This document shows positions 1 to 14,361 of a stretch of 14,361 bases of DNA, piece after piece. Positions within the stretch are counted from its first letter, which is position 1, and every line of letters starts with the position of its first letter. A model generated the notes under the pieces. That model did no database searches. It was not told where the DNA came from and was given only the letters and a program-made list of their open reading frames with translations. The translations under genes and the position numbers were made by a program. Origin of the DNA: a virus (lineage: Duplodnaviria; Heunggongvirae; Uroviricota; Caudoviricetes); IMG/VR virus record IMGVR_UViG_2531839662_000017, positions 1 through 14,361 of that record. One strand, given 5' to 3'.

Positions 1-696
1 TCAATCTACTTTTGCAACACTTTGCTTTGAAAATGCCGCCTTTTGTTTTGAACGCGTTCTCATTACAAACAATAAAGCCCCACTATCCAGTCGGTAAAAA
101 ATGTGTTTCATTGCAACCCAGTGACGAGTAAATGTTTTGGACCAGTTTTTAGTTGTCACTCCCGCCAGTAATGCCAGCTCCTGGTATTCATAACCTTCCC
201 CACCAAAAAGTTCTGCTTTTACTGCCTGCGCCGCCAGCCAGATTAATTTTTTCAGGCGTTCCTGCGTTTTCCCTGCAATTTTTCTGGTACCGGATTGAGT
301 ATTAAATTCGTTCCACGCCCACTGTGTTATCGCGATCTGATGCTCCCAGCAAATGTTTCCGCCGTAACACCACAACAACCAGGCTTTATGATGCTCTTCA
401 AGAGACAGCACAGCCCGCCGCCATGATGATGTCGAAAACTCAACCGGGCTGACCAGGGCAATTGATGAGCCTTTCGCCAGTGATTGTTTTCCCGGGATTG
501 GTGGATTATCCCGCGTTATCATTTTTCCAGTCACTTCATCGCGGTACCGGATTTTTTTACGCCTGTAACGCCCTGTATCAAACATGGCATTCTCCTGCCA
601 GGCTTCAAGCTGACCTTTTGTTGCCCCACTCAAATCAGCGGTGGCGATAATGAGCTGCTCGCGCACAAACTGTAAATACTGGTTATTCATGCGCAC
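1..696 (-). CDS. Late-gene antitermination protein Q-like (lambdoid)
   Basis: 231-aa ORF that ends the minus-strand operon directly after rusA, the standard position of Q. Its start region overlaps the rusA stop (ATGA, alternative start at 690), suggesting translational coupling. Stop codon at 1-3, so the gene is complete. Assignment rests on position and size, not a confirmed motif. Confidence 0.55.
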   Translation of the reverse strand: MRMNNQYLQFVREQLIIATADLSGATKGQLEAWQENAMFDTGRYRRKKIRYRDEVTGKMITRDNPPIPGKQSLAKGSSIALVSPVEFSTSSWRRAVLSLEEHHKAWLLWCYGGNICWEHQIAITQWAWNEFNTQSGTRKIAGKTQERLKKLIWLAAQAVKAELFGGEGYEYQELALLAGVTTKNWSKTFTRHWVAMKHIFYRLDSGALLFVMRTRSKQKAAFSKQSVAKVD

Positions 697-1052
697 TCCA
701 ATTCTGTGATTTTTATCCCCAGCCGCCCACCAGGAACGAGCTGACCGCGCACAATATTGATTTCATCAAGCTGCTCGTCGTCTATGAGTAGTCCGGCATG
801 CGTCAGCGCATCCAGTGGTGCTTTCAGGATATTGTCCAGGTCACGACGACGTTTATCCGGTGGCTCTGCAATCACCTTTATCGCCAGCCGTCCGGACAGG
901 TTTAATTTCAGCCGCTGCTGGCGAACAATTAGCGCCACATCACGGCGATAACGCTCACCGGCTTTTGATACAAAATATGTGCTGCCACGACGTCGCCAGT
1001 AGGTGTTCACCGTTGGCGGGTAAGGCAAAACAAATTCTATGCGTTCGGTCAT
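687..1052 (-). CDS. rusA: Holliday junction resolvase RusA
   Basis: 121-aa translation has RusA-family hallmarks (PDKRRRDLDNILKAPLDALTHAGLLIDDEQL; basic N-terminus YWRRRG) and matches RusA length. Sits in the nin region next to Q, as in DLP12-type prophages. Confidence 0.85.
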   Translation of the reverse strand: MTERIEFVLPYPPTVNTYWRRRGSTYFVSKAGERYRRDVALIVRQQRLKLNLSGRLAIKVIAEPPDKRRRDLDNILKAPLDALTHAGLLIDDEQLDEINIVRGQLVPGGRLGIKITELECA

Positions 1053-2108
1053 TTATGCTTTCCACTTCAGGACACCCGAATTTCTCGCGTGCATTAAAAA
1101 ACGAATCAGCAACAACAGCTGGCTGCCGTGTTTTTCTTCAAAATCTTTTACCCCGGTGTGCAGTTCGTTATGACATTTACGGCACAATGGAATAACAAAC
1201 AAATCGTCAGCCTTTGTTCCCATCCCTCCCAGTCCATGACCAATGATGTGATGCGGATCATCTGCCTGATTACCGCACGTCATGCATTTCTGCGTTTTTA
1301 CCCAGCGCGTGTATACAGGCATCTCTTCCCGTTGTGGTTTCTGGCGCTGGAGATACTGAGCCGGTGACTCCGGATCAACGGCAATGCTGACCACTGTCTT
1401 TTCCTGTGGCGGGTTTTGCTGGTGGGCGTGAGGCAGCGGCGCAAGATTTTTTGTGCGCTGCTTCAGTATGCTGGTGGCGGTCTGCTCTCCCGGCACGATG
1501 TCGCTCTCGCGGTATACTGAGCGAATTTTTTCCGCGCGCAATCCCAGCGAACGACGTAATACCGTCTCCGGTAGTGCGTCCGCTACGTTATTTATGGTTG
1601 CCCACCAAGATAATTCAGCCAGCGATAATTCCCGCTCCTGCGTGCCATTCATTGCATGGTGTATGACGTCAATCATCCATGCTGACAGGTTTTGATGAGC
1701 AAGTTGCTCGAGTGATTCGGATGTCTGGTCACGCAGCTGGTTGTCGCAGTGCCAGCACAACACCATTGCGCCGGTACCATAACGGTGAATAACGGTTTCG
1801 CTGTGATGATAATCGCCGTGTGGCCACTGGCAGGATTTAACATGACGCAGGAGCCAGTCAGACAGTGCACCAGCGCCGCCGGCAGCACGAATCACCCGCT
1901 CATCGCTGAAAAATGGCAGCAGAGATTTGTCTTCCGCCAGCGGCTGGCGAACGGCAGGAACGACCCCGGACGGCAGACCGCGCATGCTTTTTGGCTCCGG
2001 TTCAACCAGCACTCTGCCGTTATGGAATACCTGCATGGATTCACGACCTGGCTTAACGATAACCACCCCAAGTTCCGGCACCAGAACAGGTCGAAGTAAT
2101 ACCCGCAC
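1053..2108 (-). CDS. DUF968/YdfU-like phage protein with C-terminal Cys/His (HNH-like) motif
   Basis: 351-aa ORF tightly packed between the rem-like gene and rusA (1-nt and 0-nt gaps). C-terminus carries CMTCGN...HHIIGHG...CRKCHNELH. Size and position resemble YdfU of Qin-type prophages (recalled, not searched). The true start may be internal. Confidence 0.6.
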   Translation of the reverse strand: MRVLLRPVLVPELGVVIVKPGRESMQVFHNGRVLVEPEPKSMRGLPSGVVPAVRQPLAEDKSLLPFFSDERVIRAAGGAGALSDWLLRHVKSCQWPHGDYHHSETVIHRYGTGAMVLCWHCDNQLRDQTSESLEQLAHQNLSAWMIDVIHHAMNGTQERELSLAELSWWATINNVADALPETVLRRSLGLRAEKIRSVYRESDIVPGEQTATSILKQRTKNLAPLPHAHQQNPPQEKTVVSIAVDPESPAQYLQRQKPQREEMPVYTRWVKTQKCMTCGNQADDPHHIIGHGLGGMGTKADDLFVIPLCRKCHNELHTGVKDFEEKHGSQLLLLIRFLMHARNSGVLKWKA

Positions 2109-2109
2109 G

Positions 2110-2382
2110 TTACCTCCAGATGCGTTGCTGGAATGTGCGGGACGGACGCGGTGGGCGTTCGGAATAAGGGAGCCTGACAGAAATTATCCAGTGTCGGAAG
2201 TCAGGGCTGAGGTCTTTCTGAAAGTCGTACCCACGCCTGCGGTAGTTCTGAATCAGCCATTCGGCCTGTTCTTCAGTGCATGGGGCATGCTGGTACCAGT
2301 CATATTTGAATGTATGAGAACGCCGCCCGTGCCAGCTGGCAAGGTCGGTATCAGAATTGTGATGTTTGGTATTGTGCGCCAT
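2110..2382 (-). CDS. Small phage protein, rem-position ORF
   Basis: 90-aa ORF immediately upstream of the DUF968 gene in the same operon, in the position rem occupies in Qin-like prophages. No recognisable catalytic motif. Confidence 0.5.
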   Translation of the reverse strand: MAHNTKHHNSDTDLASWHGRRSHTFKYDWYQHAPCTEEQAEWLIQNYRRRGYDFQKDLSPDFRHWIISVRLPYSERPPRPSRTFQQRIWR

Positions 2383-2455
2383 CGGTTTTCTCTGCTGGCG
2401 CAGCAGGTGCCAGTTGTTCAGGCTAGCCTGTAGATTGTAAACCAGAATACGTAAA

Positions 2456-2480
2456 ACAAAAAACCCGCCGAAGCGGGTTA
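2456..2480 (-). terminator. Intrinsic terminator downstream of the HTH-ImmA gene
   Basis: Minus strand reads ACCCGC-TTCG-GCGGGT followed by TTTTTTGTTTT (6-bp GC stem, tetraloop, U-tract), starting 4 nt after the stop codon at 2484. Confidence 0.7.
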
Positions 2481-2483
2481 TGC

Positions 2484-3605
2484 CTAGTGAATTTTGCCTC
2501 TAAGAGTTCGGTAAGATTGTAGTGAAACAACATCACCACTTCCTGGCAGTTCATGAACCGCAGGAAGATCATCTCCTACTAACTCATAAAAAATGTCCAC
2601 TTCTATATCCATTTCATCAGCTATACGCTGTGGGTCGTATCCTAACTCTTCAAATAAAAACGATAAAGCCCGACGGAATAACTCAGGACGCTCATGAGGG
2701 ATTAGATAATCTTCTTTTTCATCAATAGCTTCCCCTTTCCGTTTCAACCCCATAAATGCAGTTCTGTACTGCTCATCAGTCAAAAGTCCTAATTGATGAG
2801 CCCTGTAAACAATGGCAGCCTTACTTACTTTCCATGTCAACTTAAATTGGCTTAGTCCCTGCCAATTTATCCTCCCCCCCACAGGTCTTGGAAAATATTT
2901 CGCCATCGACGTTCTGGGAAGCAACAGAGCAGAGGCAAAACGGTTTGCCTGGGATTCAGTTAATCTATCCCCAGTAGAAATTCCTTCATGAAGAATCAAA
3001 TGGGCAACCTCATGAGCAATATCAAAGCGTTGCCTACAAGGTGAATTTTTAGCTGTATTTCGAACAATAAAAGGCCTTCGTAGAGGAACAGACAGTGCAT
3101 CTACTTCATCCGAAACGGAGTCAAATGAAGTAACAAACGCCCCAAGTTTCTCGGCAAGGCGAGTCATATTTTCAATTGGGCCAAAGCCTAAGCCCCACTC
3201 AATACGACATTTTTCTGCCGCTCGCTCGATATCTTCTTGTGTATGGACACGAAATTCAGGAAATCGAACAGGTGACAAATTAAGGTTATCTTCAAATACA
3301 TCAATAAAACGACGATAAAACTCAGCCTTAGCGAGTGTTGATAGCTTCGTTGACATCCTTGTCGAGGCGCGTTTACGAAAATGTACAATCTCTTCATTAA
3401 CAGGAGAATGTTCCTGCCCTTCGAAAAAGGCGGGCTTCACGCGCAAAACCTCGGCTAATTTATTTATAAGCTCTGGGGATGGAGTAGCTGAACCAGACTC
3501 CAGTCGCTGTACATACTGGCGTGTTTTTTCAACCTTCTCAGCAACCTGCTCCAGAGATAGCTCGTGATACAGACGAGCAAGTCTTAAATTAGTACCGTTA
3601 AACAC
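2484..3605 (-). CDS. Fusion protein: N-terminal XRE-family HTH plus ImmA/IrrE-type (COG2856) zinc metallopeptidase
   Basis: 373 aa, GTG start preceded by GGGTGA. N-terminal Cro/C1-type HTH (LSLEQVAEKVEKTRQYVQRLESG). HEVAH (HExxH) zinc-binding motif at residues 198-202, encoded at 3000-3014. Second gene of a two-gene operon, 10-nt gap after the upstream ORF. Confidence 0.85.
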   Translation of the reverse strand: MFNGTNLRLARLYHELSLEQVAEKVEKTRQYVQRLESGSATPSPELINKLAEVLRVKPAFFEGQEHSPVNEEIVHFRKRASTRMSTKLSTLAKAEFYRRFIDVFEDNLNLSPVRFPEFRVHTQEDIERAAEKCRIEWGLGFGPIENMTRLAEKLGAFVTSFDSVSDEVDALSVPLRRPFIVRNTAKNSPCRQRFDIAHEVAHLILHEGISTGDRLTESQANRFASALLLPRTSMAKYFPRPVGGRINWQGLSQFKLTWKVSKAAIVYRAHQLGLLTDEQYRTAFMGLKRKGEAIDEKEDYLIPHERPELFRRALSFLFEELGYDPQRIADEMDIEVDIFYELVGDDLPAVHELPGSGDVVSLQSYRTLRGKIH

Positions 3606-3615
3606 ATTTCACCCA

Positions 3616-4209
3616 CTATTTGCTATTTTGTTTCTTTTCCTTCTCAGTCTTAGACGCACTGATAGGTTCTAGTTCGATAGGTACCGGTGCTGGAGGTACA
3701 TCATCGACAGAGTTCAGCATAACAACACGGTCCGCACCATATGTCCAAGTTGACACGATCTCACCAAACACGTTATAGCCATTAAAAATGACTCTACCAC
3801 CCTCGCCTTCAAATTCAGGCTTTTCAACCACAAAGCGATGCATAGTTGGAGTAGTCTCCTCTGACTCAAAGAGTCGATCAGCATCATTTCTTTTGAAAAA
3901 ACCGCGTTTCTTGGGGTTATCTGCGTCATCAGTAAAGAAACGAATAGGGACATTCCCAATTGAAAACGTAAGATCCATGCCAGGATTAAGTAGTCTTAAC
4001 CAGTCATATGTCTTTCGTACGCACATTTGTAGCAACGCCTGCCGCTGACGCCCAAATGTACAACCACCACGAGTGTAATTATCATCATAGGGCGATGACA
4101 ATAACTCATGAGTAATATCCTGTATCCTGAGCAACTCCTCAGCTATAATGGTTAAACGCTCCTCTGTTAACTCAGGAAAGAACTCCCAAGGGAATGGATG
4201 GTTCTGCAT
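3616..4209 (-). CDS. Hypothetical protein, upstream partner of the HTH-ImmA gene
   Basis: ORF track gives 3616..4257 from a TTG. The ATG at 4207-4209 (MQNHPFPWEF...) has a GGAG Shine-Dalgarno 8 nt upstream and is preferred, giving 197 aa. I recognise no family. Codon usage is lower-GC than the phage backbone. Confidence 0.65.
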   Translation of the reverse strand: MQNHPFPWEFFPELTEERLTIIAEELLRIQDITHELLSSPYDDNYTRGGCTFGRQRQALLQMCVRKTYDWLRLLNPGMDLTFSIGNVPIRFFTDDADNPKKRGFFKRNDADRLFESEETTPTMHRFVVEKPEFEGEGGRVIFNGYNVFGEIVSTWTYGADRVVMLNSVDDVPPAPVPIELEPISASKTEKEKKQNSK

Positions 4210-4258
4210 AGACACTTCTCCGCCTAATCCGTGCAAAAAACGACTTTTGTCAACCAAG

Positions 4259-4287
4259 ATATTGGTGCATATTCATAATTTTGTCAA
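4259..4287 (-). promoter_or_regulatory. Candidate sigma70 promoter of the two-gene cassette
   Basis: Minus-strand TTGACA (4287-4282), 17-nt spacer, CAATAT (4264-4259), about 45 nt upstream of the preferred ATG. The -10 is weak. Confidence 0.3.
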
Positions 4288-4290
4288 CCA

Positions 4291-4315
4291 ATAAAAAACC
4301 CGCCGAAGCGGGTTA
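4291..4315 (-). terminator. Intrinsic terminator downstream of the hok remnant (identical copy of the 2456-2480 hairpin)
   Basis: Same ACCCGC-TTCG-GCGGGT plus T-run on the minus strand. The 23 nt at 4293-4315 are identical to 2458-2480. Confidence 0.65.
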
Positions 4316-4382
4316 AGTGCGGGTGCGTTGAGGATGCCTGACACATCAGAGGTGGCGAGGGATTTCTCCCTCGCCTGGTCTC

Positions 4383-4502
4383 TTACTCCTCAGGTTCGTA
4401 AGCTGTGAAGACAGCGACCTCCGTCTGGCCGGTTCGGATTCGTACCTCGCAGAGGTCTTTCCTCGTTATCAGTACCGCAACAATTTCGTATTCATGATTC
4501 AT
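4383..4502 (-). pseudogene. hok-family toxin remnant, 5'-truncated (HokD/RelF-like C-terminus)
   Basis: Minus-strand translation ...IVAVLITRKDLCEVRIRTGQTEVAVFTAYEPEE* matches the conserved Hok C-terminal half. Only 39 codons are in frame from an ATG (MNHEYE...), an in-frame TGA lies just upstream, and the hydrophobic N-terminal helix is missing. Homology ends where the AT-rich DNA begins (about 4480). A perfect 9-bp hairpin at 4354-4375 lies in the 3' UTR. Confidence 0.55.
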
Positions 4503-4659
4503 TTCATCTAAAACAGTTCATAAACCTAAATAAATTCAAAAAATCACAACACAAATAAATATAAATTATCTCATCCTGAAGAACGATAGGATTATTTAGA
4601 ATTAATAACAATTAATGTAACAATAATTATCAATCCAGATTATTCAAATAAAATGTCAT

Positions 4660-5706
4660 TTACCATATGGAGTTGTGAATGAACTTTAATTCATTTTTTA
4701 TTTTGTTAACAGATAAATTCACGGATGTCCTAACTCTATTCACAGTCATTGCATCTCCTGGATTTAACAACTCTAATGGTTTAGACTTAGCACTTGACAT
4801 TCTGCCACTACCCAGAAAATCATCAAGAATCACAATGTGATTATTAGGATCATCTGTTGTAAAATTACTAATATTTTGTCGAATTACCTCTCTTACAGCT
4901 TCGATGTACATTTTTGTCTGTTGATTTGGTTTATTCCTTGCTCCTGCCACTGTTGACCATCCGCAATGGGTAATAACCACCATCTGAATTTTTGGTGTAT
5001 GGCCATCAGACGGCATTATCTTTCTAAATTCTGATGTTGGTTTAGTCAGAGTATCAATAAGTAATCTTAATGAATTAATCGATTGCTGATCTGTCCTCAC
5101 TGGAACTATTAAAGCATCTGTTGCATGCCAAGATAAATGCGTCGCTCCAGAGAAAAAAGGTGATGTATCAATTAACGCTTTTGTAGTACCAGTTTCAACC
5201 ATTTCTCTGGCTATTTCTTTCTTCAGAGAAAAAAGAATTGTATCAATAACAACCTGCTGAGTAGCCCCAGAAATTGTTCTGGCTTGAGCCAGAGCATTCG
5301 CCATTTGCGTAGGTAGAAGATAAAGTTGACTATCAGATTGAATAAAATAGTTATTCTTGCCCGCAAACCAAGCATTAGTTGATGATACTAGCTTTGCAGC
5401 ACGCGTTGCAAATCCAAGCCCTGGAACAAAATAAGGCATTAAGAGGTCATTTGCAGTTGTGCTAGACGAAGATGCATAATTATTGTCAAAAAAATATGAT
5501 AAATTTCCTTGCGGGCACGTATCCACGATTAATGCGTTATCCGCCAAATATGACAGATTAAAAGTTAAAGATGTCTTACCAATGCCTCCCCGTAAATTAC
5601 ATACTGTATATTTATCATATTTCGGCAAATTAAGACTTCTTACATTACCGTCAGCAACTTCGAATTGACGCTCTATCAGAGCATTAACATTTGATTCACT
5701 AGTCAT
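4660..5706 (-). CDS. ParA/MinD/BcsQ-like P-loop ATPase (deviant Walker A), AT-rich accessory gene
   Basis: 348 aa with VCNLRGGIGKTSLTFNLSY (Walker A of KGGxGK[ST] type, with R replacing the signature K as in BcsQ) followed by IVDTCPQGNL (ParA-type D-x-PQ-N). The gene and its flanks are markedly AT-rich compared with neighbouring phage genes. Confidence 0.7.
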   Translation of the reverse strand: MTSESNVNALIERQFEVADGNVRSLNLPKYDKYTVCNLRGGIGKTSLTFNLSYLADNALIVDTCPQGNLSYFFDNNYASSSSTTANDLLMPYFVPGLGFATRAAKLVSSTNAWFAGKNNYFIQSDSQLYLLPTQMANALAQARTISGATQQVVIDTILFSLKKEIAREMVETGTTKALIDTSPFFSGATHLSWHATDALIVPVRTDQQSINSLRLLIDTLTKPTSEFRKIMPSDGHTPKIQMVVITHCGWSTVAGARNKPNQQTKMYIEAVREVIRQNISNFTTDDPNNHIVILDDFLGSGRMSSAKSKPLELLNPGDAMTVNRVRTSVNLSVNKIKNELKFIHNSIW

Positions 5707-5736
5707 ATCGCCACCATTAGTTTTACACTTTTATTG

Positions 5737-5765
5737 ATGATATGGAAAACTAACCTAGTTGTCAA
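5737..5765 (-). promoter_or_regulatory. Near-consensus sigma70 promoter for the ParA-like gene
   Basis: Minus-strand TTGACA (5765-5760), 17-nt spacer, TATCAT (5742-5737), about 30 nt upstream of the ATG at 5706. Confidence 0.5.
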
Positions 5766-5913
5766 CAATGGATTAAAAAACAAACACACAAGCGTTTATC
5801 AAAAGCACCTTGATTGGTGATACTACCGTGTCTTTCAGCCAAACAGTTCAGTATGTAAAGCGAATCCAACATCAATTAAGAACGTTTTCAGCGCTCCCCC
5901 AGTTGTCTAGATG

Positions 5914-6091
5914 TCAAACTTCATGCGCTCTCCTGTCGAAATAAACGTACTGATTAATCATGCCCAAGGACATTTCGCGTTTTACAGCGATATCACGGCG
6001 GGGAACTCCACACTGATGAAGCTTCCGCACTAGCTCAATATCGCTTTGCGGATGTTTTTTTGATTGGTTATAACCCCCCCCCTCTTAACAT
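5914..6091 (-). pseudogene. Small HTH ORF (weakly NinH-like), split by a frameshift at a G9/C9 homopolymer
   Basis: Minus strand reads ATG-MLRGGG into the G9 run and hits a stop. Removing one G gives a 58-aa ORF MLRGGGYNQSKKHPQSDIELVRKLHQCGVPRRDIAVKREMSLGMINQYVYFDRRAHEV* with an HTH-like core. The NinH resemblance is weak and from memory. Confidence 0.35.
6074..6082. repeat. C9 (minus-strand G9) homopolymer tract
   Basis: Nine consecutive C residues counted directly in the sequence, lying inside the frameshifted small ORF. Confidence 0.9.
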
Positions 6092-6192
6092 CCTATTGAT
6101 ACCCAGTTCCTGCGCTTTCGCTCTGACAGCATAACTAGAACGATCAATCAACCCTCCTATGCTTTCGACCGTCAACGCGTCTACACAATTGC

Positions 6193-6648
6193 CTAAGCGC
6201 CATGATTTCCCTCATGCACAACCTGTTCACCGAATGTCTCTCGAAAACCATTCTGGTAAAATGCCAGTACACGCTGCATAGCTTCGCTCTTCCGGCACTC
6301 GCGACAGATTATATTCAGGCGCCTATCGTAGCGACGCATTTCTCCGTCTGGTAATGACCAGATAAGGTCCGGATCAACCACAGATGGTTTCTTCAGATTT
6401 GCCCTTGAGAGTTTTTTGCGGGCGTTTTGCCAGTCCTTACGAGCCTGTTCAGACGGGAATAACCCGTAGCCAGAGTTATATACATCGCCACTGGCAACCA
6501 GCTCTCTGGCGATAACACTCATCAGATATCTTGTCGCACCAGTTTTCGCTTCCAGTTGCCGTAACGTCTCGCGCCCGCTCTGGCGTACCAGCTCAACAAC
6601 CTGCCCTTTAATTTTTTCTCGCTCTTCCTGTGTAAATACTTTTGCCAT
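6193..6648 (-). CDS. Hypothetical nin-region phage protein
   Basis: The ORF track extends to 6714, but the ATG at 6646-6648 (MAKVFTQEE...) has a GGGAGG Shine-Dalgarno and removes the overlap with the upstream gene, giving 151 aa. No family recognised. Confidence 0.55.
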   Translation of the reverse strand: MAKVFTQEEREKIKGQVVELVRQSGRETLRQLEAKTGATRYLMSVIARELVASGDVYNSGYGLFPSEQARKDWQNARKKLSRANLKKPSVVDPDLIWSLPDGEMRRYDRRLNIICRECRKSEAMQRVLAFYQNGFRETFGEQVVHEGNHGA

Positions 6649-6664
6649 AAGCCCTCCCCAGGAA

Positions 6665-7435
6665 TCACTTTTCCGGCACAATACGACTGGAGGAATCGAC
6701 AATCTGTCGGACAATATCCCGGTGCTTGTTCAGCTCCCGCAGCGCGGCGCAAACTCGCTCCCACTTCTGGGCATGACTTTTCGCCCGGCGCAGTTCGCGG
6801 TTTGCCATATGCAGCGATGGTAAAATCAGGCCATCAGCTCGTGTTTCAGTGAACGATGGCAGCGACTGCACAATGTCCGCCACAGTTTCTGTTTTAATAT
6901 CTTCCTGTGTTGCAGCTTCCTGTACTGGTAACGCAACACTTGCTGGCTGAGGAAAGGCTTTACCATCAGTTTCCGCTACCAATGCAGCTTTCGGCTCTGC
7001 TGGTAAATTATCGCCCGGTATGCAGTAGCGAAATTTACCGTTCTGGTTTACGCGTGCCAGCCGCCCCGTTGCGGTTACTACCGCCAGCGTGGAAGCAACC
7101 TTGCGAGTGCTGACACCGAACTTACCCGCCAGTTCCTCACACGTTTTAGCTCCCTCCTGACCGATAAACTCAATCATCATGTCAGCGGTAACTTTTCGTT
7201 CGACCTCCCTGGTTAGCACATCCTGTACTTCAGATTGTGCTGGCTGCTCTTCGGCTACCCCTGATTCACCTTCGCCAGCCACACGCCAGGTGTATACGCT
7301 TTTATCAACGAAGCCAGCCTTTTTCAGTTCCCACAGCTCGTTCAGTACTTCTTCACGACTGATATCAAGTCGCGCAGCCAGCTCTACCGACGTGGCTTTT
7401 CCCATCGCTTTCAGTGCGTCAAAAACGGTCTCCAT
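6665..7435 (-). CDS. Hypothetical phage protein with N-terminal winged-helix-like region
   Basis: The ORF track start at 7486 overlaps the DnaC-like gene. The ATG at 7433-7435 ([13 protein letters not shown]...) has a GGAGG Shine-Dalgarno 8 nt upstream, giving 256 aa. The N-terminus has a helix-turn-helix-like pattern ([28 protein letters not shown]). Confidence 0.6.
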
Positions 7436-7457
7436 TAAAATTTCCTCCCGGTAAAAA

Positions 7458-8204
7458 TTACTTCTCAATACCTGGCTGACCAACATTCGGGCGCCAGCTC
7501 TCCCAGTTAAAATTCACCCAGCGCCCGCCGTTCATGGTCATGCGATCCATAATCCGCTCGCCGAGCAATGTTTTCATGGCCTCATAGTTCAGGTTTGTCA
7601 GCATCCCCACGCTGCGCATCGACGCTGTCCGGCGATCAACAATCTGGTGCAGTACCACCTGCTCGTTTTTCGTCTCGCGCTGAATACCAATTTCATCAAG
7701 AACCAGCAGATCCACTTCGCACAGTTCCCGCAAAAATTTTTCGCCTGATTGCCCGTCGTCATAGCTGGCGTGTAGAGCACTCATGACATCAGCCACGGTA
7801 ACCACAATCACTGTCTGGCCATCTTTCAGCAGGCGATTCCCGATAGCCGCCGCTAAGTGGTTTTTCCCGGTACCAGGTTTTCCGCTGAATGCGAAATTTG
7901 TGCATCCGGTCATCAGTTCATCGGCGATGGATTTCGCCTGGCTCAACGCGTATCGCTGGCCGTCATTCTGCACCTGGTAATTCGCAAACGAGCACTTGCG
8001 GTGCAACGGCTGGATGCCGGAGCGATTCAGAATTTTTTCCACCCGCAACTGACGATTCTGGCGGTTGATCTCCTCGCAACGCTTCTGGCCTTCTGCAAGT
8101 TGCCACTCGCGCCACTCGTCCACTGTTCGGTATGGCGCGGTTACATGCTGCGGAGCCAGCTTACGGATGCGTTCAAGAACACCGCCTGTCGCAATATTTT
8201 TCAT
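7458..8204 (-). CDS. DnaC-like replicative helicase loader (IstB-type AAA+ ATPase)
   Basis: 248 aa with Walker [16 protein letters not shown] and Walker B LLVLDEIG. Follows the O-like gene by 6 nt with a GGGGG Shine-Dalgarno. Confidence 0.85.
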
Positions 8205-8210
8205 GCTTCG

Positions 8211-9158
8211 TTACCCCCTGAATCCCGGCGGAATTTCGGTGTCCGGTTCAGAAATGTGATTCACGCAACGCTGTACAGGCGAACGCCCCAGACGAATAAC
8301 CAGCTCATCCCATTTTTCGCGAAGCTTTGACGGGCTCATGACGTTTTTTACCCAGAATGGATCCCGCTGTACCCGACCAAACATTTCGCAAATTTGTCTG
8401 TGAGTTCTGCCATCCAGCATCCGCATTGTGCGCACATCATTGGCCCATGCAGTCCAGTTGGGTTCTTTCGGTCGCATGATTTCGCCATCATCGCTGGCAG
8501 CCTGCTCGTAAAGACTCACGATTCGTCCCCAGATCCACTGCGCACACGCTAAATCCTCCTGGCTGCCCCACTGGCGTTTTTTCGCACTGAACACAACCGC
8601 GTCAGGGTGTCGGGTTAAAAAATCCTGTTCAGCCGTCTGCGGGTCCGGTTGCGAAGCGTCCGGACGAAAAGATCTTTTATCTGACGGATCAGGTTTTAAT
8701 ACTGACGGATCGGGGCCAACCATCGCCCCCCTATCCGACTGTTTTTTATCAATGGTTGATCCATCAAAATTTGAGGGGTCAACCGTTGAGGGGGCAATAT
8801 TTGACGGGTCATTTTTTGCCTGGCTAATTTTTCTTTTCGGTTTATATGCCTCACGCGCCGCCGCTGCTGCTGCTTCGAGTTTTTCCACATTAAGGCGGTA
8901 GATATTGCTTTCATTACGCCCACCGACCTTACGTTCCTCCTTCTTCAGCCAGCCGTTCTTTTCCAGTTCCGCTATCGCCGCTTTAACCGTTGATTCACTC
9001 TTTGCTCCAATCTGACGACGAATGGTCTCCACTGCAGGCCATGACACACCTTCGTCATTGCTGTAATCTGCAAGGCGAGCCATTACTGCCACCCTGGATA
9101 AGATCATGCCGGTGAAGGCACACCCTTCCCAGACAAGACCATGAAGCTTGCTGCTCAT
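8211..9158 (-). CDS. Replication initiator, lambda O-like (origin-binding protein)
   Basis: 315-aa ORF just upstream of the DnaC-like gene. The DNA encoding its central low-complexity linker (DPSN/DPSV/DPSD repeats) contains iterons, as in lambda O. Confidence 0.7.
   Translation of the reverse strand: MSSKLHGLVWEGCAFTGMILSRVAVMARLADYSNDEGVSWPAVETIRRQIGAKSESTVKAAIAELEKNGWLKKEERKVGGRNESNIYRLNVEKLEAAAAAAREAYKPKRKISQAKNDPSNIAPSTVDPSNFDGSTIDKKQSDRGAMVGPDPSVLKPDPSDKRSFRPDASQPDPQTAEQDFLTRHPDAVVFSAKKRQWGSQEDLACAQWIWGRIVSLYEQAASDDGEIMRPKEPNWTAWANDVRTMRMLDGRTHRQICEMFGRVQRDPFWVKNVMSPSKLREKWDELVIRLGRSPVQRCVNHISEPDTEIPPGFRG
8681..8848. repeat. Putative phage replication origin: iterons plus AT-rich segment inside the O-like gene
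   Basis: Five copies of a 10-bp motif yTGAsGGrTC at 8681, 8702, 8771, 8786 and 8801 (the last three exactly 15 bp apart), clustered GATC sites, and an adjacent T-rich stretch at 8811-8848. Confidence 0.5.
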
Positions 9159-9181
9159 AAAAAACTCCGAACACCGTGCTT

Positions 9182-9607
9182 TTAGTGCATCACCACGGCA
9201 TTTCCCGCCGGACCACCACGATTCATCTGATTGAAACCAGCGATCGCCACTGCGACAAAATCATCAGCGTCTCTCACCAGTCGTTCCCGCATCTCCACCA
9301 GCTCCCGAAAATAGGCTGAACTGTGGCTGCGCATTCGGGCCACCAGCAGAGGTGGCATTGCCTTTTCGATCGCCGGTAACAGCGCCTGAATTTTTTTAAC
9401 CGCATCAGGGGTGTCTTTCTCCACCCAGCGGAAAATTTTCTGAGTATTGCGAGCCAGGGCTTCCGGATGCCTGTCGTCATATAGCTCTGGGAACGTCATA
9501 CCAAGCTCAAAATAAGCCCGGGTTATTTCAGCTGCTGGAACTTTTTCGCCATCAGGACGCGCCCAGGCATTCATCGCCATGCGGATGTGTTCATGCTTGA
9601 TTTTCAT
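9182..9607 (-). CDS. ydaT: YdaT-like protein (CII-position regulator)
   Basis: 141 aa beginning MKIKHEHI. Overlaps the upstream Cro-like gene by ATGA (9604-9607) and sits between cro-like and O-like genes, the lambda cII position. The name is from recalled Rac/CP-933P annotation. Confidence 0.55.
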   Translation of the reverse strand: MKIKHEHIRMAMNAWARPDGEKVPAAEITRAYFELGMTFPELYDDRHPEALARNTQKIFRWVEKDTPDAVKKIQALLPAIEKAMPPLLVARMRSHSSAYFRELVEMRERLVRDADDFVAVAIAGFNQMNRGGPAGNAVVMH

Positions 9608-9906
9608 GAATCAACTCCATCAGATAAGCATGCACTACAATCACCTTCAGCATGAACTACATGTGTTTGCCCCAAACGAATGCCGCTCGCATACTCAGGC
9701 CAAATAAGCTCCCAATCATGGGGTCGTAGCTCCGCCCTACTTACTTGGCCTTCCGTCGCAGATTCGATCATAAGGGCGCGGGTTGGAGATATAGCTGCTC
9801 GTCCAGACGCCATTTGCGATAAGTAAGATGGCGATACACCAAGTCTGGCCGCGAATTTCTTAGCATCACCAACCCTCAATGATTTAATAAACTCTTTTAA
9901 TGTCAT
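9604..9906 (-). CDS. ydaS: Cro-like HTH regulator (YdaS-like)
   Basis: 100 aa with HTH KKFAARLGVSPSYLSQMASGRAAISPTRALMIES. Divergent from the repressor gene across an operator-bearing intergenic region. Confidence 0.65.
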   Translation of the reverse strand: MTLKEFIKSLRVGDAKKFAARLGVSPSYLSQMASGRAAISPTRALMIESATEGQVSRAELRPHDWELIWPEYASGIRLGQTHVVHAEGDCSACLSDGVDS

Positions 9907-9916
9907 ACCTTCCTCG

Positions 9917-9997
9917 GTTTAGTGTTTTTTTGCGAGTTTAGTGTTTAATAAACCATTAAGTCAAGTATTTGCTTGTTTAGTGATTACTAAAGATAAT
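9917..9997. promoter_or_regulatory. Right operator/promoter region: three direct repeats GTTTAGTG(T/A)T plus divergent promoters
   Basis: Repeats at 9917-9926, 9936-9945 and 9975-9984. Candidate repressor promoter TTGCTT (9969-9974), 17 nt, GATAAT (9992-9997), placing the transcript start near the ATG at 10004 (leaderless, like lambda PRM). Candidate cro-like promoter on the minus strand: TTGACT (9964-9959) with -10 TAAACT. Confidence 0.45.
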
Positions 9998-10003
9998 TAC
10001 CAC

Positions 10004-10375
10004 ATGCAAAAAAAAGAAATTCGCCGTTTACGTCTCAAGGAGTGGTTTAAAGATAAAACTCTGCCACCCAAAGAGAAGAGCTACCTATCTCAACTAATGA
10101 GTGGGAGGGCCTCGTTTGGAGAAAAGGCTGCCAGAAGAATAGAGCAAACATACGGGATGCCGGAAGGGTATCTGGATGCGGAATACGCAGAACAACCGGA
10201 AGTTTCTCCACCACATGCAGGGTTAACGTCTAATCAACTGGAATTATTGCAGATTTTTTCAGCCTTCCCTGAGGATGAGCAACGCCAGATAATCAGCGAG
10301 TTAAAGCAGAAAAAAGAATCAATGGAAGATCTCATAGCGAGATGGATTGCGGCGCAAAAATGCCGCCGCGCCTGA
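10004..10375 (+). CDS. paaR: CI-like prophage repressor (PaaR-like HTH regulator), no S24 peptidase domain
   Basis: ATG at 10004 preferred over the GTG at 9941, which would read through the operator repeats. 123 aa with HTH KEKSYLSQLMSGRASFGEKAARRIEQ. First gene of a three-gene operon with the ParE-family toxin-antitoxin pair. Confidence 0.65.
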   Translation: MQKKEIRRLRLKEWFKDKTLPPKEKSYLSQLMSGRASFGEKAARRIEQTYGMPEGYLDAEYAEQPEVSPPHAGLTSNQLELLQIFSAFPEDEQRQIISELKQKKESMEDLIARWIAAQKCRRA

Positions 10376-10395
10376 GTTATAAAACCGGAGGAAAC

Positions 10396-10587
10396 ATGAA
10401 TAGAGCCCTTTCACCAATGGTTTCTGAATTTGAAACCATTGAACAAGAAAACAGTTACAACGAATGGCTGCGTGCGAAAGTAGCAACGAGCCTTGCAGAT
10501 CCGCGCCCAGCAATTCCCCATGACGAAGTTGAGCGCAGAATGGCAGAACGCTTTGCTAAAATGCGCAAGGAACGGAGCAAGCAGTAA
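10396..10587 (+). CDS. paaA: Small antitoxin partnered with ParE toxin (PaaA-like)
   Basis: 63 aa (MNRALSPMVSEFETIEQ...) with a GGAGG Shine-Dalgarno. Stop at 10585-10587 lies 1 nt before the toxin ATG. I recall this as the PaaA antitoxin of the paaR-paaA-parE systems in O157:H7 prophages. Confidence 0.65.
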   Translation: MNRALSPMVSEFETIEQENSYNEWLRAKVATSLADPRPAIPHDEVERRMAERFAKMRKERSKQ

Positions 10588-10588
10588 A

Positions 10589-10867
10589 ATGTTACCCGTG
10601 TTATGGCTTGAAAGCGCAGATACCGACCTAGATGATATAACTAGCTATATTGCTCGTTTCGACATAGATGCGGCTGAACGCTTATGGCAGCGATTAAGGG
10701 GTTGTGTGCTGCCGTTATCCGAACATCCGTATTTATACCCACCAAGCGACAGAGTACCTGGCTTGCGTGAGATTGTAGCCCACCCTAACTATATAATTCT
10801 ATACCGCGTAACAACATCAAGCGTTGAAGTAGTAAACGTGATCCACGCAAGACGCCAGTTTCCCTAA
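10589..10867 (+). CDS. parE: ParE/RelE-family toxin
   Basis: 92 aa with a ParE-like C-terminus (HPNYIILYRV...VEVVNVIHARRQFP), translationally coupled to the antitoxin. Confidence 0.8.
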   Translation: MLPVLWLESADTDLDDITSYIARFDIDAAERLWQRLRGCVLPLSEHPYLYPPSDRVPGLREIVAHPNYIILYRVTTSSVEVVNVIHARRQFP

Positions 10868-10928
10868 CTTTCACTACCAATAGAAACATAACAACCGCAA
10901 CGACTTTATCAAAAGCGTTGTGTTTGTT

Positions 10929-10970
10929 ACGCCCCGTGGTTTAGTTTTTACTTGACTTAAGTTTAATGTT
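10929..10970 (+). promoter_or_regulatory. pL-like promoter with two operator-like repeats
   Basis: GTTTAGTTTT (10929-10938) and GTTTAATGTT (10951-10960) each differ by one base from the right-operator repeat. They flank TTGACT (10942-10947), about 16 nt, TAAACT (10964-10969), a near copy of the cro-like promoter. Confidence 0.4.
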
Positions 10971-11077
10971 TATTAAACTAAAAATACCAACCCACCCCGC
11001 CCCACAGAATGCAGGGCAATACTTCGAGTTACCAGGCAGTGGTCAGGGGTTAAGTAGCCAGCCCGAGGCGTAAGAAC

Positions 11078-12943
11078 ATGACGGCAGGGTTCAACTTTAA
11101 TAACTATGCAGCAGGTTTTTGTTCCGCTACCCCGGCGTTAAGGGGAAATGAGGTCAGCATGGATACTATCGATCTTGGCAACAACGAATCTCTGGTATGC
11201 GGCGTGTTCCCCAACCAGGACGGTACGTTCACCGCGATGACATATACCAAAAGCAAAACGTTTAAAACCGAATCTGGCGCGCGTTGCTGGTTAGCCAGAA
11301 ACAATGAAGTTATCGACAAAGATCGCGAAGACTGGAAGCGCATTTCCGCATCAATGCGCAAACAACCCGATGCCGTCCGCTACGACCGTCAGACTATTTT
11401 TGGCCTTGTCCGTGAGCGTCCGATCGACATTCACAAAGATCCCGTAGCACTGAACAAATACATCACTGAATACCTGGCGACAAAGGGCGTGTTTGAGGAT
11501 GAAGAAACAGACCAGAACGCTGCTGATATTCTCCAGCCGTCAGCAGCACAAACTGATGCAGTGGAAACTGAAGTATCTGATACCCAAAAAAATGAAAGCA
11601 CGCTGGAAACTGAACCATCTGTAGAGCGTGAGGGGCCGTTCTACTTCCTTTTCACCGATAAGGATGGCGAAAAATATGGTCGTGCAAACAAACTTTCTGG
11701 TCTGAATAAGGCGCTGGCTGCAGGGGCTACTGAAATCACGAAAGAAGAATATTTTGCCCGCAAAAACGGTACATACTCAGGCTCACAACAAAATACTGGT
11801 GCATCTGACACGACCGCACAACCAGAGCCGGTAAAAGTTACCGCTGACGAAGTAAACAAAATTATGCAGGCAGCCAATATCAGCCAGCCTGACGCTAATG
11901 AACTGCTTGCTGCCTCTCGCGGAGAATTTGTTGCAGGGATTAGCGACCCGAATGATCCGAAATGGGTGAAGGGGATTGAAACCCGCGATTCTGTGAACCA
12001 GAACCAGCAAGAAACGGAACAGAACGACCAGAAAGCGGAACAAAACAGCCCAAATGCGTTACAAAACGAGCCGGAAACAAAACAACCTGAGCCAGTAGCG
12101 CAACAGGAAGCGGAAAAAGTCTGCACCGCCTGCGGTCAGAGCGGTGGCGGCAACTGCCCTGATTGTGGCGCGGTGATGGGCGACGCAACATACCAGGAAA
12201 CATTCGATGAAGAGAATCAGGTTGAAGTTCAGGAAAACGATCCGGAGAAAATGGAAGGCGCTGAACATCCACACAAGGAGAATGCTGGCAGCGCTCAGGA
12301 CCACGCCAGCGATAATGAAACTGGCGAGGCGGCAGATCACTCAATTAAGATGAACGGTCATCACGAAATCACATCCACCAGCAGGACGTGTGACCATCTA
12401 ATGATCGACCTCGAAACCATGGGAAAAAATCCTGATGCCCCGGTTATCTCAATAGGTGCAATATTTTTCGATCCGCAAACCGGAGATATGGGACCGGAAT
12501 TTAGTAAGACTATCGATCTGGAAACTGCTGGCGGAGTCATTGATCGGAACACCATTAAATGGTGGCTGAAGCAATCACGCGAAGCGCAATCTGCCATTAT
12601 GACCGATGAAATCCCGTTAGATGATGCACTGTTACAATTGCGAGAATTTATCGACGAAAACTCCGGTGAATTTTTTGTTCAGGTCTGGGGAAATGGAGCC
12701 AACTTCGACAACACGATTTTGCGCCGTTCATACGAACGGCAGGGGATCCCCTGCCCGTGGCGTTACTACAACGATCGCGATGTACGCACAATCGTTGAGC
12801 TGGGGAAAGCCATAGACTTCGATGCCAGAACGGCTATTCCATTCGAAGGTGAGCGCCATAATGCACTTGATGACGCTCGTTACCAGGCAAAATACGTTTC
12901 AGCTATCTGGCAAAAACTGATCCCGAGTCAGGCTGATTTTTAA
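11078..12943 (+). CDS. Multidomain protein with C-terminal DnaQ-like (DEDDh) 3'-5' exonuclease domain
   Basis: 621 aa. C-terminal third carries Exo motifs MIDLETMG (D-x-E), [11 protein letters not shown] and HNALDDARY. Preceded by a Cys4 zinc-ribbon ([16 protein letters not shown]) and an acidic Q/E-rich low-complexity linker. The start could instead be Met28 at 11159. Confidence 0.75.
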
Positions 12944-13004
12944 TGTTCAACCGTCGCCAGTTGTCGTTGGTATTCTGCAACTGGCGCGTTCCGGAGTGAT
13001 AGCC

Positions 13005-13274
13005 ATGAGCGAACAGTACCTGATAACGCTCGATGAGTGGAAGCCAAAACGGTTCAGTCTCCCAATAACAAACACTACCCTGGTGAAATACGGAAAACTA
13101 GGATACATCGTTCCAAGACCACAAAAAATTCGTGGGCGTTGGCTGATAGATCGCCGAGCAGTATTTGTTGGACCTGGTGAAACAGGAATTGCGCCGGAAA
13201 TTCATACTGGCGATGATGATGCACTGAAGGAGATTTTAACTCATGTCACCGAGGCCACGAAAAAACAGCACTGA
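13005..13274 (+). CDS. xis: Excisionase (Xis-like)
   Basis: ATG at 13005 with GGAG 8 nt upstream (ORF track starts at a GTG at 12996). 89 aa, small and basic. Overlaps the integrase start by 32 nt, as lambda xis/int do. Confidence 0.6.
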   Translation: MSEQYLITLDEWKPKRFSLPITNTTLVKYGKLGYIVPRPQKIRGRWLIDRRAVFVGPGETGIAPEIHTGDDDALKEILTHVTEATKKQH

Positions 13275-14361
13275 CGTAGCCGGACTTTACGAAAAATTTG
13301 ATCGCAGAACTGGCAGAGTTTACTACCAGTATAAAAACCCTGTGACTGGAAAATTTCACGGGCTCGGAACAGACAAAGGTAAGGCAGAAAAAATCGCTTC
13401 CACAGCCAATCAGCGAATAGCTGCAGCAGAGGCTGAATATTTCATGCGCAAAATTGATGAAAGTCCGTCAGCAACAACGCGTCGGGGTATCAGATTAAAG
13501 GCATGGGTTGATCGATATCTGAAAATACAGGACACGCGACTGAAAAATGGAGATATTGCAGCTACAACTCACAAAGAAAAAGCCAGAATGGCTGCATACC
13601 TGGTTTCCCGTCTGGGAAACCACCCATTGAAAGAACTGGAAGTAAGAGACTTTGCATTAATACTGGATGAGTGGCTGGATAAAGACATGGTCAGCACAGC
13701 GAGAGTAAATCGTGGATTATGGGTTGATATTTATAAAGAAGCACAGCATGCAGGGGAAGTTCCTCCTGGATGGAATCCTCCGGAGGCCACCCGTAAACCG
13801 ATCCCTAAAGTAACCAGAGCCAGACTCACCCTGGAAGACTGGCAAAAAATTTACAACGCAACGCCAGAAAAACACTTTATCCGTAACGCAATGCTTCTTG
13901 CGATTGTTACTGGTCAGCGCCGTGATGACATTTACCACATGCGTTTTTCAGATGTGTGGAACGAACATTTGCATATCACCCAGGGAAAAACCGGAATGCG
14001 TCTGGCGTTACCGCTTACACTACGCTGTGATGCCATTGGGATAACGTTAAAAGAAGTTATTGATGGGTGCCGAGACAGAATATTAAGTCCATATCTAATC
14101 CATAGTCGGCACCAGAAACAACCGAAGCCGATGAGTAAAGACAACCTGAGCGACTACTTTGCCAAAGCACGGGATCTGGCTGGGATAATTCCACCAGCAG
14201 GAAAAACTCCGCCAACATTTCATGAACAACGCTCTCTATCAGAACGGCTGTACCGTGCACAGGGTATCGATACAAAAACATTACTAGGACATAAAGTCCA
14301 GGCAACCACCGATCGCTATAACGATACTCGAGGTCAGGAATGGGTTAAGTTGGTTATTTGA
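13243..14361 (+). CDS. int: Tyrosine site-specific recombinase (phage integrase)
   Basis: 372 aa with an arm-binding type N-terminus and a C-terminal catalytic region (...LLGHKVQATTDRYNDTRG..., candidate Tyr nucleophile in DRY). Stop codon is the last three bases of the window, so the attachment site probably lies just beyond. Confidence 0.9.
   Translation: MSPRPRKNSTDVAGLYEKFDRRTGRVYYQYKNPVTGKFHGLGTDKGKAEKIASTANQRIAAAEAEYFMRKIDESPSATTRRGIRLKAWVDRYLKIQDTRLKNGDIAATTHKEKARMAAYLVSRLGNHPLKELEVRDFALILDEWLDKDMVSTARVNRGLWVDIYKEAQHAGEVPPGWNPPEATRKPIPKVTRARLTLEDWQKIYNATPEKHFIRNAMLLAIVTGQRRDDIYHMRFSDVWNEHLHITQGKTGMRLALPLTLRCDAIGITLKEVIDGCRDRILSPYLIHSRHQKQPKPMSKDNLSDYFAKARDLAGIIPPAGKTPPTFHEQRSLSERLYRAQGIDTKTLLGHKVQATTDRYNDTRGQEWVKLVI

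Follow-up and report, generated by a model that had tools for sequence, protein, structure and literature searches.

Why should an accessory cassette in a prophage lie between two copies of the same transcription terminator? The question is raised by a 14,361-nt stretch of Caudoviricetes DNA (IMG/VR record IMGVR_UViG_2531839662_000017, positions 1 to 14,361; 'the window' below refers to this whole stretch), whose sequence is 100% identical to a lambdoid prophage of the porcine E. coli UMNF18. In that prophage's nin region, the toxin-antitoxin (TA) cassette RosmerTA is bracketed by two identical hairpins, the right-hand one standing next to a 3′ fragment of hokD. Our analysis points to two ordinary terminators of one kind, one belonging to hok and the other to the cassette, and the short identity between them probably serves as a recombination joint at which cassettes are exchanged. 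The loci used for comparison are referred to by L numbers.

The exact 23-mer AAAAAACCCGCCGAAGCGGGTTA is present twice in the window, at 2458-2480 (left hairpin) and 4293-4315 (right hairpin), on the same (+) strand and 1835 bp apart, just as the original prediction had placed the two direct repeats; when one mismatch is allowed, the repeat grows to 26 nt (2455-2480 and 4290-4315). Two matches to AAAAAACCCGCCGAAGCGGGTTA were seen in 0/200 dinucleotide shuffles of the window, a statistic that exaggerates the improbability of the repeat because the 19-mer AAACCCGCCGAAGCGGGTT is a terminator of generic type. The minus-strand sequence of either copy is the stem AACCCGC/GCGGGTT around the loop TTCG, followed by TTTTTT, and folding returned for both a hairpin with a 7-bp stem, five GC pairs and a UUCG loop, followed by U6. 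The two copies are the strongest sites listed by the terminator scan of the window; scan and fold together agree with the earlier view that both resemble minus-strand intrinsic terminators. The stem of the right hairpin occupies 4314-4297 and its U-run 4296-4293, running on as ATTGG; that of the left hairpin occupies 2479-2462 and is followed by TTTTGTTTTA. Both hairpins take 3′-end positions, the left one after the stop codon of rmrA and the right one after the hok 3′ region, here as well as in the cassette-free sites described below. They are predicted to act as separate Rho-independent terminators of one stereotyped design (CCCGC/GCGGG stem, UUCG loop, U-run).

The cassette between the hairpins is a complete RosmerTA anti-phage TA module, comprising putative promoter/operator repeats, the toxin gene rmrT, the antitoxin gene rmrA and a terminator. 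The two genes are adjacent, and their products match the RmrT and RmrA models of PADLOC over the full length. RmrA combines an N-terminal XRE-type helix-turn-helix (HTH) domain (Pfam HTH_3) with an M78/ImmA-type Zn-peptidase domain (Pfam Peptidase_M78); for RmrT, the Pfam search returned no family. The longest open reading frame (ORF) of rmrT begins at a TTG at 4257, and the PADLOC RmrT alignment begins at residue 17 of this long ORF. RosmerTA has been tested experimentally and described as a two-gene system made up of a toxin of unknown function, RmrT, and a Zn-peptidase-domain antitoxin, RmrA (Millman et al. 2022, bioRxiv 10.1101/2022.05.11.491447). The gene content here is the same, with no difference detected; what is new is the location and the flanks.

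Just downstream of the right hairpin, the 13-bp sequence TTTTGTCAACCAA is repeated exactly at 4245-4257 and 4279-4291, with a spacing of 34 bp. The minus-strand reading of each repeat, TTGGTTGACAAAA, holds the consensus TTGACA. In the upstream repeat this hexamer (4287-4282) could serve as a -35 element, followed 17 nt later by CAATAT as a weak -10 hexamer; the site is absent from the list returned by the consensus promoter scan. The two-repeat layout upstream of rmrT recurs in relatives at 70-80% DNA identity (L129, L130 and L231), and the repeats likely provide both the promoter -35 element and binding sites for the HTH domain of RmrA. The GC content of the cassette is 40-45%, against 52-57% in the backbone genes at its left (1200-2400), which bears out the proposal that the segment between the hairpins is an inserted module. 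Within the cassette we found no transposase gene and no terminal inverted repeats, and rmrT and rmrA are the only ORFs matched to families. It shares with morons its insertion between genes that are adjacent in related phages, a distinct base composition and a predicted terminator and, if the candidate promoter is real, would be a self-contained unit running from a promoter with operator repeats to its own terminator.

Where did the left hairpin come from? Duplication of the hok terminator during acquisition of the cassette had been put forward as one source, which the RosmerTA relatives argue against: those outside hok loci already carry the hairpin after rmrA. The comparison drew on 39 loci with genes for RmrA relatives, reduced to a non-redundant set. 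In the lambdoid contig L231, a cassette whose RmrA is 88% identical to that of the window follows the replication genes; hok is absent there, and no hairpin precedes the cassette. The alignment between the two runs from window position 4289 to 2461 (79.8% identity), starting at the putative promoter repeats that adjoin the right hairpin; the block of homology takes in the left hairpin (ctgAACCCGCTTCGGCGGGTTTatg) and excludes the right one. More generally, RmrA relatives of 75-88% identity in non-hok contexts, again with no upstream hairpin, have the same core 6-20 nt past rmrA, as AACCCGCTTCGGCGGGTT or ATCCCGCTTCGGCGGGAT. Cassettes of the clade at 75-77% RmrA identity, to which a P2-type locus next to a replication endonuclease gene belongs (L129), end in ATCCCGCTTCGGCGGGAT and a U-run or in loop variants, and RmrA relatives below ~72% identity have unrelated terminators. 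The terminator tracks the phylogeny of the cassette and was therefore not copied from hok at insertion. The left hairpin is the predicted terminator of the cassette itself, inherited with it. The same hairpin, or a closely similar one, often ends Doc relatives of 70-78% identity outside hok loci.

A remnant of a tandem hok duplication was considered as well and ruled out, the neighbour of the left hairpin (TGCCTAGTG...) being unlike the hok 3′ region (AGTGCGGG...). In L231, two genes with no assigned function (267 aa and 344 aa; 4279-6627) follow the cassette terminator and may represent further accessory or defence cargo.

The right hairpin has a different owner. In E. coli O157:H7 strain Z1814 (L002), one hairpin links the hok 3′ region straight to a homologue of the 90-aa gene that follows the cassette in the window. 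Single-hairpin relatives of this kind, which the original prediction had pointed to as informative, were found in L002 and in ~52 of the 119 hok-linked hairpins that make up our IMG/VR sample, and a further ~38 of the 119 have the order hok, terminator, rem, as in K-12. At these empty sites, hok and its terminator are joined directly to a 90- or 92-aa gene, and because the sole copy present is the one next to hok, the right hairpin is the hokD terminator. Among 5426 complete E. coli genomes, 2933 match a synthetic precise-deletion construct over at least 80% of its length. The RosmerTA of the window (RosmerTA-1) is present in 23/5426 of these genomes, every copy being ≥99% identical and located at this site; in phage and plasmid collections we found no near-identical copy of the cassette, only relatives of ~70% identity.

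RosmerTA-1 shares this position with other genes. At least four further cargoes occupy the identical position and are likewise closed by a second hairpin copy, giving five bracketed cargo types in all: a second, divergent RosmerTA (RosmerTA-2; 237 genomes, e.g. E. coli 042), a Phd-like/Doc TA pair (125 genomes), an HTH protein with an M78 peptidase (L086) and a 130-aa gene with a lipoprotein-like N-terminus. The second hairpin is present in 17/17 IMG/VR contigs of the hok sample that bear a complete foreign cargo; in L016 and L108 it is degenerate and was detected by alignment and a core-only search. The repeated segment measures 20-23 bp in every bracketed cargo, and where it ends depends on the type: the stem base contributes TTA, T or TT, and the A-run 3-7 nt. 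Cargoes of different types have unrelated promoter regions; the terminator is the only part they share.

Three further observations concern the occupants of this site. At every locus with the 130-aa cargo, two stem nucleotides are missing from the hairpin on the hok side (AAAAAACGCCGAAGCGGGTT; L003 2634-2651, L006, L007, L008 and ~57 IMG/VR loci, L341-L400); the shortened stem should weaken the hok terminator and could permit hok read-through into the cargo gene. An AT-rich insert of ~290 bp with no annotated gene occupies the same site in CFT073 (L005, 1230-1540) and in L040, L154, L197 and L204. It has the hok-side hairpin only, its other boundary lying deeper in the intergenic region, which means that not every occupant is bracketed. 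Finally, one copy of RosmerTA-2 is interrupted by an IS5-family element (NZ_CP069459.1 1256740-1259626, H213).

The joints between cargo and backbone are what ties the repeat to recombination. RosmerTA-2 is followed by a rem-type flank in E. coli 042 (L131) and by an ORF92-type flank in CFSAN004176 (L132), with an identical cargo side in both and a switch of flank at the A-run of the hairpin. RosmerTA-1 has two flank variants (the window and L222), and the Phd/Doc pair, at 92-100% identity, has at least six different flanks on its downstream side, the divergence setting in directly past the stem; at least three of these Phd/Doc backbones are also known as single-hairpin, cargo-free sites. On that side, cargo and these backbones have no sequence in common other than the hairpin, and the crossovers must therefore have fallen within it or at its edge. 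Recombination at a conserved terminator, as originally proposed, fits this pattern of one cargo on different backbones with divergence beginning at the hairpin. The scenario that had been named as contrary to it, in which relatives carry both hairpins around unrelated genes as ordinary gene-specific terminators, holds in part; however, the terminators are of one stereotyped type, and empty sites exist. On balance, we favour a reading in which two ordinary terminators of one kind offer a short identity that acts as a recombination joint for cassette exchange, in the manner of the linkers and PeSL elements discussed below.

Under this reading, the right copy would end the hokD transcript of the prophage and belong to the backbone, and the left copy would belong to the cassette. 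The cassette sits directly behind the hok terminator, with the 90-aa gene, ydfU, rusA and Q downstream of it, a position in which the right hairpin would shield it from upstream transcription and the left hairpin would, in the lysogen, stop its own transcription short of the nin genes and Q. In lytic growth, going by established lambda biology, an extra terminator would be tolerated thanks to N-type antitermination. The ~20-25 bp common to the cassette and hok terminators are the sole homology of cassette and backbone on that side and would serve as the joint: between a donor with the order hok-terminator-cargo-terminator and a recipient with the order hok-terminator-backbone, a pair of crossovers, the first within the long stretch of hok homology and the second within the short terminator, would give hok-terminator-cargo-terminator-backbone. 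The reverse exchange, or recombination between the two terminators, would remove the cargo scarlessly and leave a normal empty site. Precise loss of the cassette by recombination between the hairpin copies is plausible, but our search gave no sign of it: the junction of the ParA-like gene with truncated hok (see below) never occurs without RosmerTA, and in the 5426 complete E. coli genomes no empty site was more than 94% identical to the precise-deletion construct.

Several points weigh against an exchange through the hairpin. At ~20-25 bp, the shared sequence would at best just reach the length that RecA usually needs for efficient recombination, and no homology was identified on the upstream side, where the hok U-run meets the predicted cassette promoter. 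Relatives of the 130-aa cargo elsewhere do not all have the hairpin downstream. The direction of events is unreadable from the cassette alone, its E. coli copies being at this site only. The hairpin is also generic: the 19-mer AAACCCGCCGAAGCGGGTT is present in at least 120 IMG/VR contigs and, among the matches listed, 88/122 occurrences are unrelated to hok or to this site. The identity of the two copies could therefore be convergence, and selection, not homology, could have determined where the insertion lies.

A separate pattern emerged from the matches listed for the 19-mer. In 26/90 of the occurrences without a hok flank (two of the 90 being cargo-side copies from hok loci), TTTAT(T/G)NC(C/T)GGAG and an ATG come within ~25 nt after the hairpin (examples among L009-L128 are L020, L066, L094 and L110). 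A stereotyped unit of terminator, ribosome-binding site and start codon in otherwise unrelated phage contigs suggests that the hairpin belongs to a broader family of regulatory units in repeated use.

The spread of the 19-mer through unrelated phage contigs lends itself to an explanation in which the hairpin has no part in recombination and independent copies of a common terminator meet by coincidence, illegitimate insertions surviving only after the hok terminator and only if they bring a strong terminator along. Read-through toward Q would be harmful, which would explain why every cargo ends in such a terminator, and the RosmerTA and Doc relatives elsewhere use the same or similar ones. Morons, too, classically have their own promoter and terminator and no mobility role, at least as Hendrix et al. 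(2000) are summarised in PMC2839356. This account has difficulty with the finding of one cargo on at least six backbones, always exactly at the hairpin, and with the same core in 17/17 cargo contigs, which is hard to obtain from random joins; for insulation, moreover, any strong terminator would do, whereas the copies agree over 20-23 nt. We consider it unlikely. The doubling of the hok terminator at insertion, through a transposition-like event or the repair of a staggered break, would also account for direct repeats of 20-23 bp around an insert and a single copy at empty sites. It is contradicted by the left hairpin being cassette-borne in non-hok contexts (L231) and by a cassette that has neither a transposase or integrase gene nor terminal inverted repeats, grounds on which transposition with target-site duplication was rejected. 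The ends of the repeat differ by cargo, as described above, and the A-run of the hok side goes along with the cargo instead of remaining with the target backbone, making such a duplication highly improbable.

A Campbell-type route is better seen as a specific version of exchange through the hairpin, which it does not contradict; sequence data cannot separate it from linear exchange. Recombination between the two terminators would excise the cargo and one terminator as a mini-circle, which would re-integrate at a matching terminator with no need for an integrase and regenerate the order terminator-cargo-terminator. A circle with one terminator integrating at another yields exactly this arrangement, five cargo types are bracketed in this way, the cassette boundaries coincide with promoter-to-terminator units, and mini-circles of PeSL cassettes have been physically detected in T4-type phages (PMC2839356). 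However, the non-hok cassettes of L231 and L129 have one flanking hairpin only and could not be excised by such a step, and the bracketed cargoes all lie next to hok, a pattern explained more simply by crossovers in one long and one short homology arm. Among the 120 contigs listed for the 19-mer, moreover, two exact copies are confined to L086 and L118, both of them hok-linked, although near-identical hairpins of this family do bracket segments away from hok (L330/L333/L335 and L397, for example). That circles were the actual vehicle seems improbable to us.

Exchange through a shared terminator has partial counterparts in known systems. Integrons carry exchangeable cassettes in arrays near a promoter, each bounded by a hairpin-forming site, and rely on the IntI integrase and imperfect attC sites of 57-141 bp. 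The likeness lies in the hairpin-bounded, exchangeable cassettes and in a one-site circle that would integrate as site-cargo-site, whereas the cassettes here lack an integrase, have their own predicted promoters and end in a perfect terminator stem-loop of 18 nt. An integron/attC model was rejected, there being no integrase gene near the cassette and the stem-loop being too short and too perfect. 'Linkers' for the modular evolution of phages were reportedly postulated by Botstein and Campbell. By analogy, the closest described mechanism is PeSL-mediated shuffling. In the T4-type phages RB49 and phi1, repeated promoter and stem-loop units flank non-essential genes in plastic regions, mark the limits of the insertions, deletions and replacements that distinguish related phages, and are a source of mini-circles; they were proposed to be homology 'linkers' for an integrase-free shuffling that keeps transcriptional insulation (Arbiol et al. 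2010, PMC2839356). As in those phages, a terminator-bearing repeat flanks variable genes here and bounds their replacement (RosmerTA-1, RosmerTA-2, Phd/Doc). Unlike the PeSL, the repeat is a terminator only (~20-25 bp) rather than a composite of promoter and stem-loop, and it is found in temperate lambdoid prophages, at a single hok-anchored locus instead of dozens of sites and with TA or defence cargoes; mini-circles are known for the PeSL.

The morons of lambdoid phages are autonomous units of a promoter, one or more genes and a factor-independent terminator, according to the summary of Hendrix et al. (2000) in PMC2839356. Like them, the cassette sits between backbone genes that are adjacent in relatives and differs from these in base composition; morons are expressed from the prophage. 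Their regulatory sequences are classically not vehicles of mobility, whereas the terminator here matches a backbone terminator and coincides with the joint in several backbones. Fixed positions for defence genes are known from P2/P4 (Rousset et al. 2022, PMC9122126), and the cI-N region of lambdoid phages is cited as a defence hotspot in PMC8585504. The site described here resembles these hotspots in its fixed position between conserved phage genes and its alternative defence or TA cargoes, and differs in lying at the hok terminator in the nin region and in having its cargoes bracketed by one terminator sequence. It thus adds a nin-region location to the known prophage defence hotspots; our literature searches found no described hok-terminator hotspot.

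A known defence system between two matching terminators is otherwise ordinary, and the interest lies in a terminator boundary that recurs with nucleotide precision in several backbones. Defence and TA genes turn over fast in prophages, and their entry and exit by integrase-free means is rarely visible. At this site the joints can be read to the nucleotide, with unrelated cargoes, several backbones and one hairpin of ~20 bp, of which the cargo brings its own copy. If the hairpin is indeed a homology patch, an element of transcriptional insulation would double as a Botstein-Campbell 'linker', and a simple rule would predict where accessory genes are gained and lost scarlessly. Lambdoid prophages would then possess a hotspot after hokD that could be mined for new defence systems. 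A bolder proposal, which we offer tentatively and ourselves hold to be somewhat doubtful, is that the UUCG-loop terminator is a portable, integrase-free recombination site in enterobacterial temperate phages; cassettes ending in the hairpin would be captured, moved and scarlessly lost at matching terminators, possibly via mini-circles, and the hok terminator would be a one-slot, integron-like dock.

The features of the locus are listed in Table 1. This part of the window has its genes on the minus strand throughout, and the order of transcription is a DnaC-like gene, DUF1627, DUF977, a low-GC ParA-like gene (4660-5706), the hokD 3′ fragment, the right hairpin, rmrT, rmrA, the left hairpin, the 90-aa gene, DUF968/ydfU, rusA and Q.

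Table 1. Positions in the window of the two hairpins, the RosmerTA cassette and its neighbours
Feature	Coordinates	Strand	Evidence and remarks
Q antiterminator gene	1-696		Downstream of the DUF968/HNH gene
RusA gene	687-1052		Downstream of the DUF968/HNH gene
Backbone DUF968/HNH gene (ydfU-like)	1053-2108	-	Pfam DUF968 E = 1e-63; RefSeq annotation
Backbone gene, 90-aa hypothetical protein	2110-2382	-	Directly after the hok terminator in empty sites
Left hairpin	2458-2480	-	Predicted RosmerTA intrinsic terminator, 3 nt past the rmrA stop codon; exact match, terminator scan, fold
rmrA, RosmerTA antitoxin	2484-3605	-	373 aa; PADLOC RmrA E = 4e-201; RefSeq CDS WP_000481765.1
rmrT, RosmerTA toxin	3616-4209	-	197 aa from ATG; PADLOC RmrT E = 7e-93; RefSeq CDS WP_001179381.1
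Predicted cassette promoter/operator region	4245-4291	-	Two exact 13-bp direct repeats; putative roles
Right (hok-side) hairpin	4293-4315	-	Predicted intrinsic terminator after prophage hokD; exact match, terminator scan, fold
hokD 3′ fragment (pseudogene)	4383-4484	-	RefSeq 'Hok/Gef family protein, incomplete, missing N-terminus'; compared with intact hokD of L002 and L133

The hok/sok type I locus is not intact here, only the hok 3′ fragment being left. Homology to intact hokD ends near 4478, and a low-GC (26-40%) ParA-like module (window 4383-5800) replaces the 5′ part of hok together with mok/sok. An Rfam scan of the window returned no match, either to the hok/sok RNA or to another structured RNA, and the ParA-like protein gave no convincing match in PADLOC. 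Of the 23 genomes with RosmerTA-1, 14 have the ParA-truncated hok and nine an intact hokD; the insertion of RosmerTA therefore came first. On the other side of the cassette, the 90-aa gene had been described as rem-like, a label that does not hold, as BLASTP gave no alignment to K-12 Rem and the Qin prophage of K-12 has both genes. Lastly, a second prophage of UMNF18 contains an empty site in which hok and its terminator are followed by ORF92 (NZ_AGTD01000001.1 1102999-1103532, H172), 92.7% identical to the flanks in the window and representing a potential exchange partner inside the same cell.

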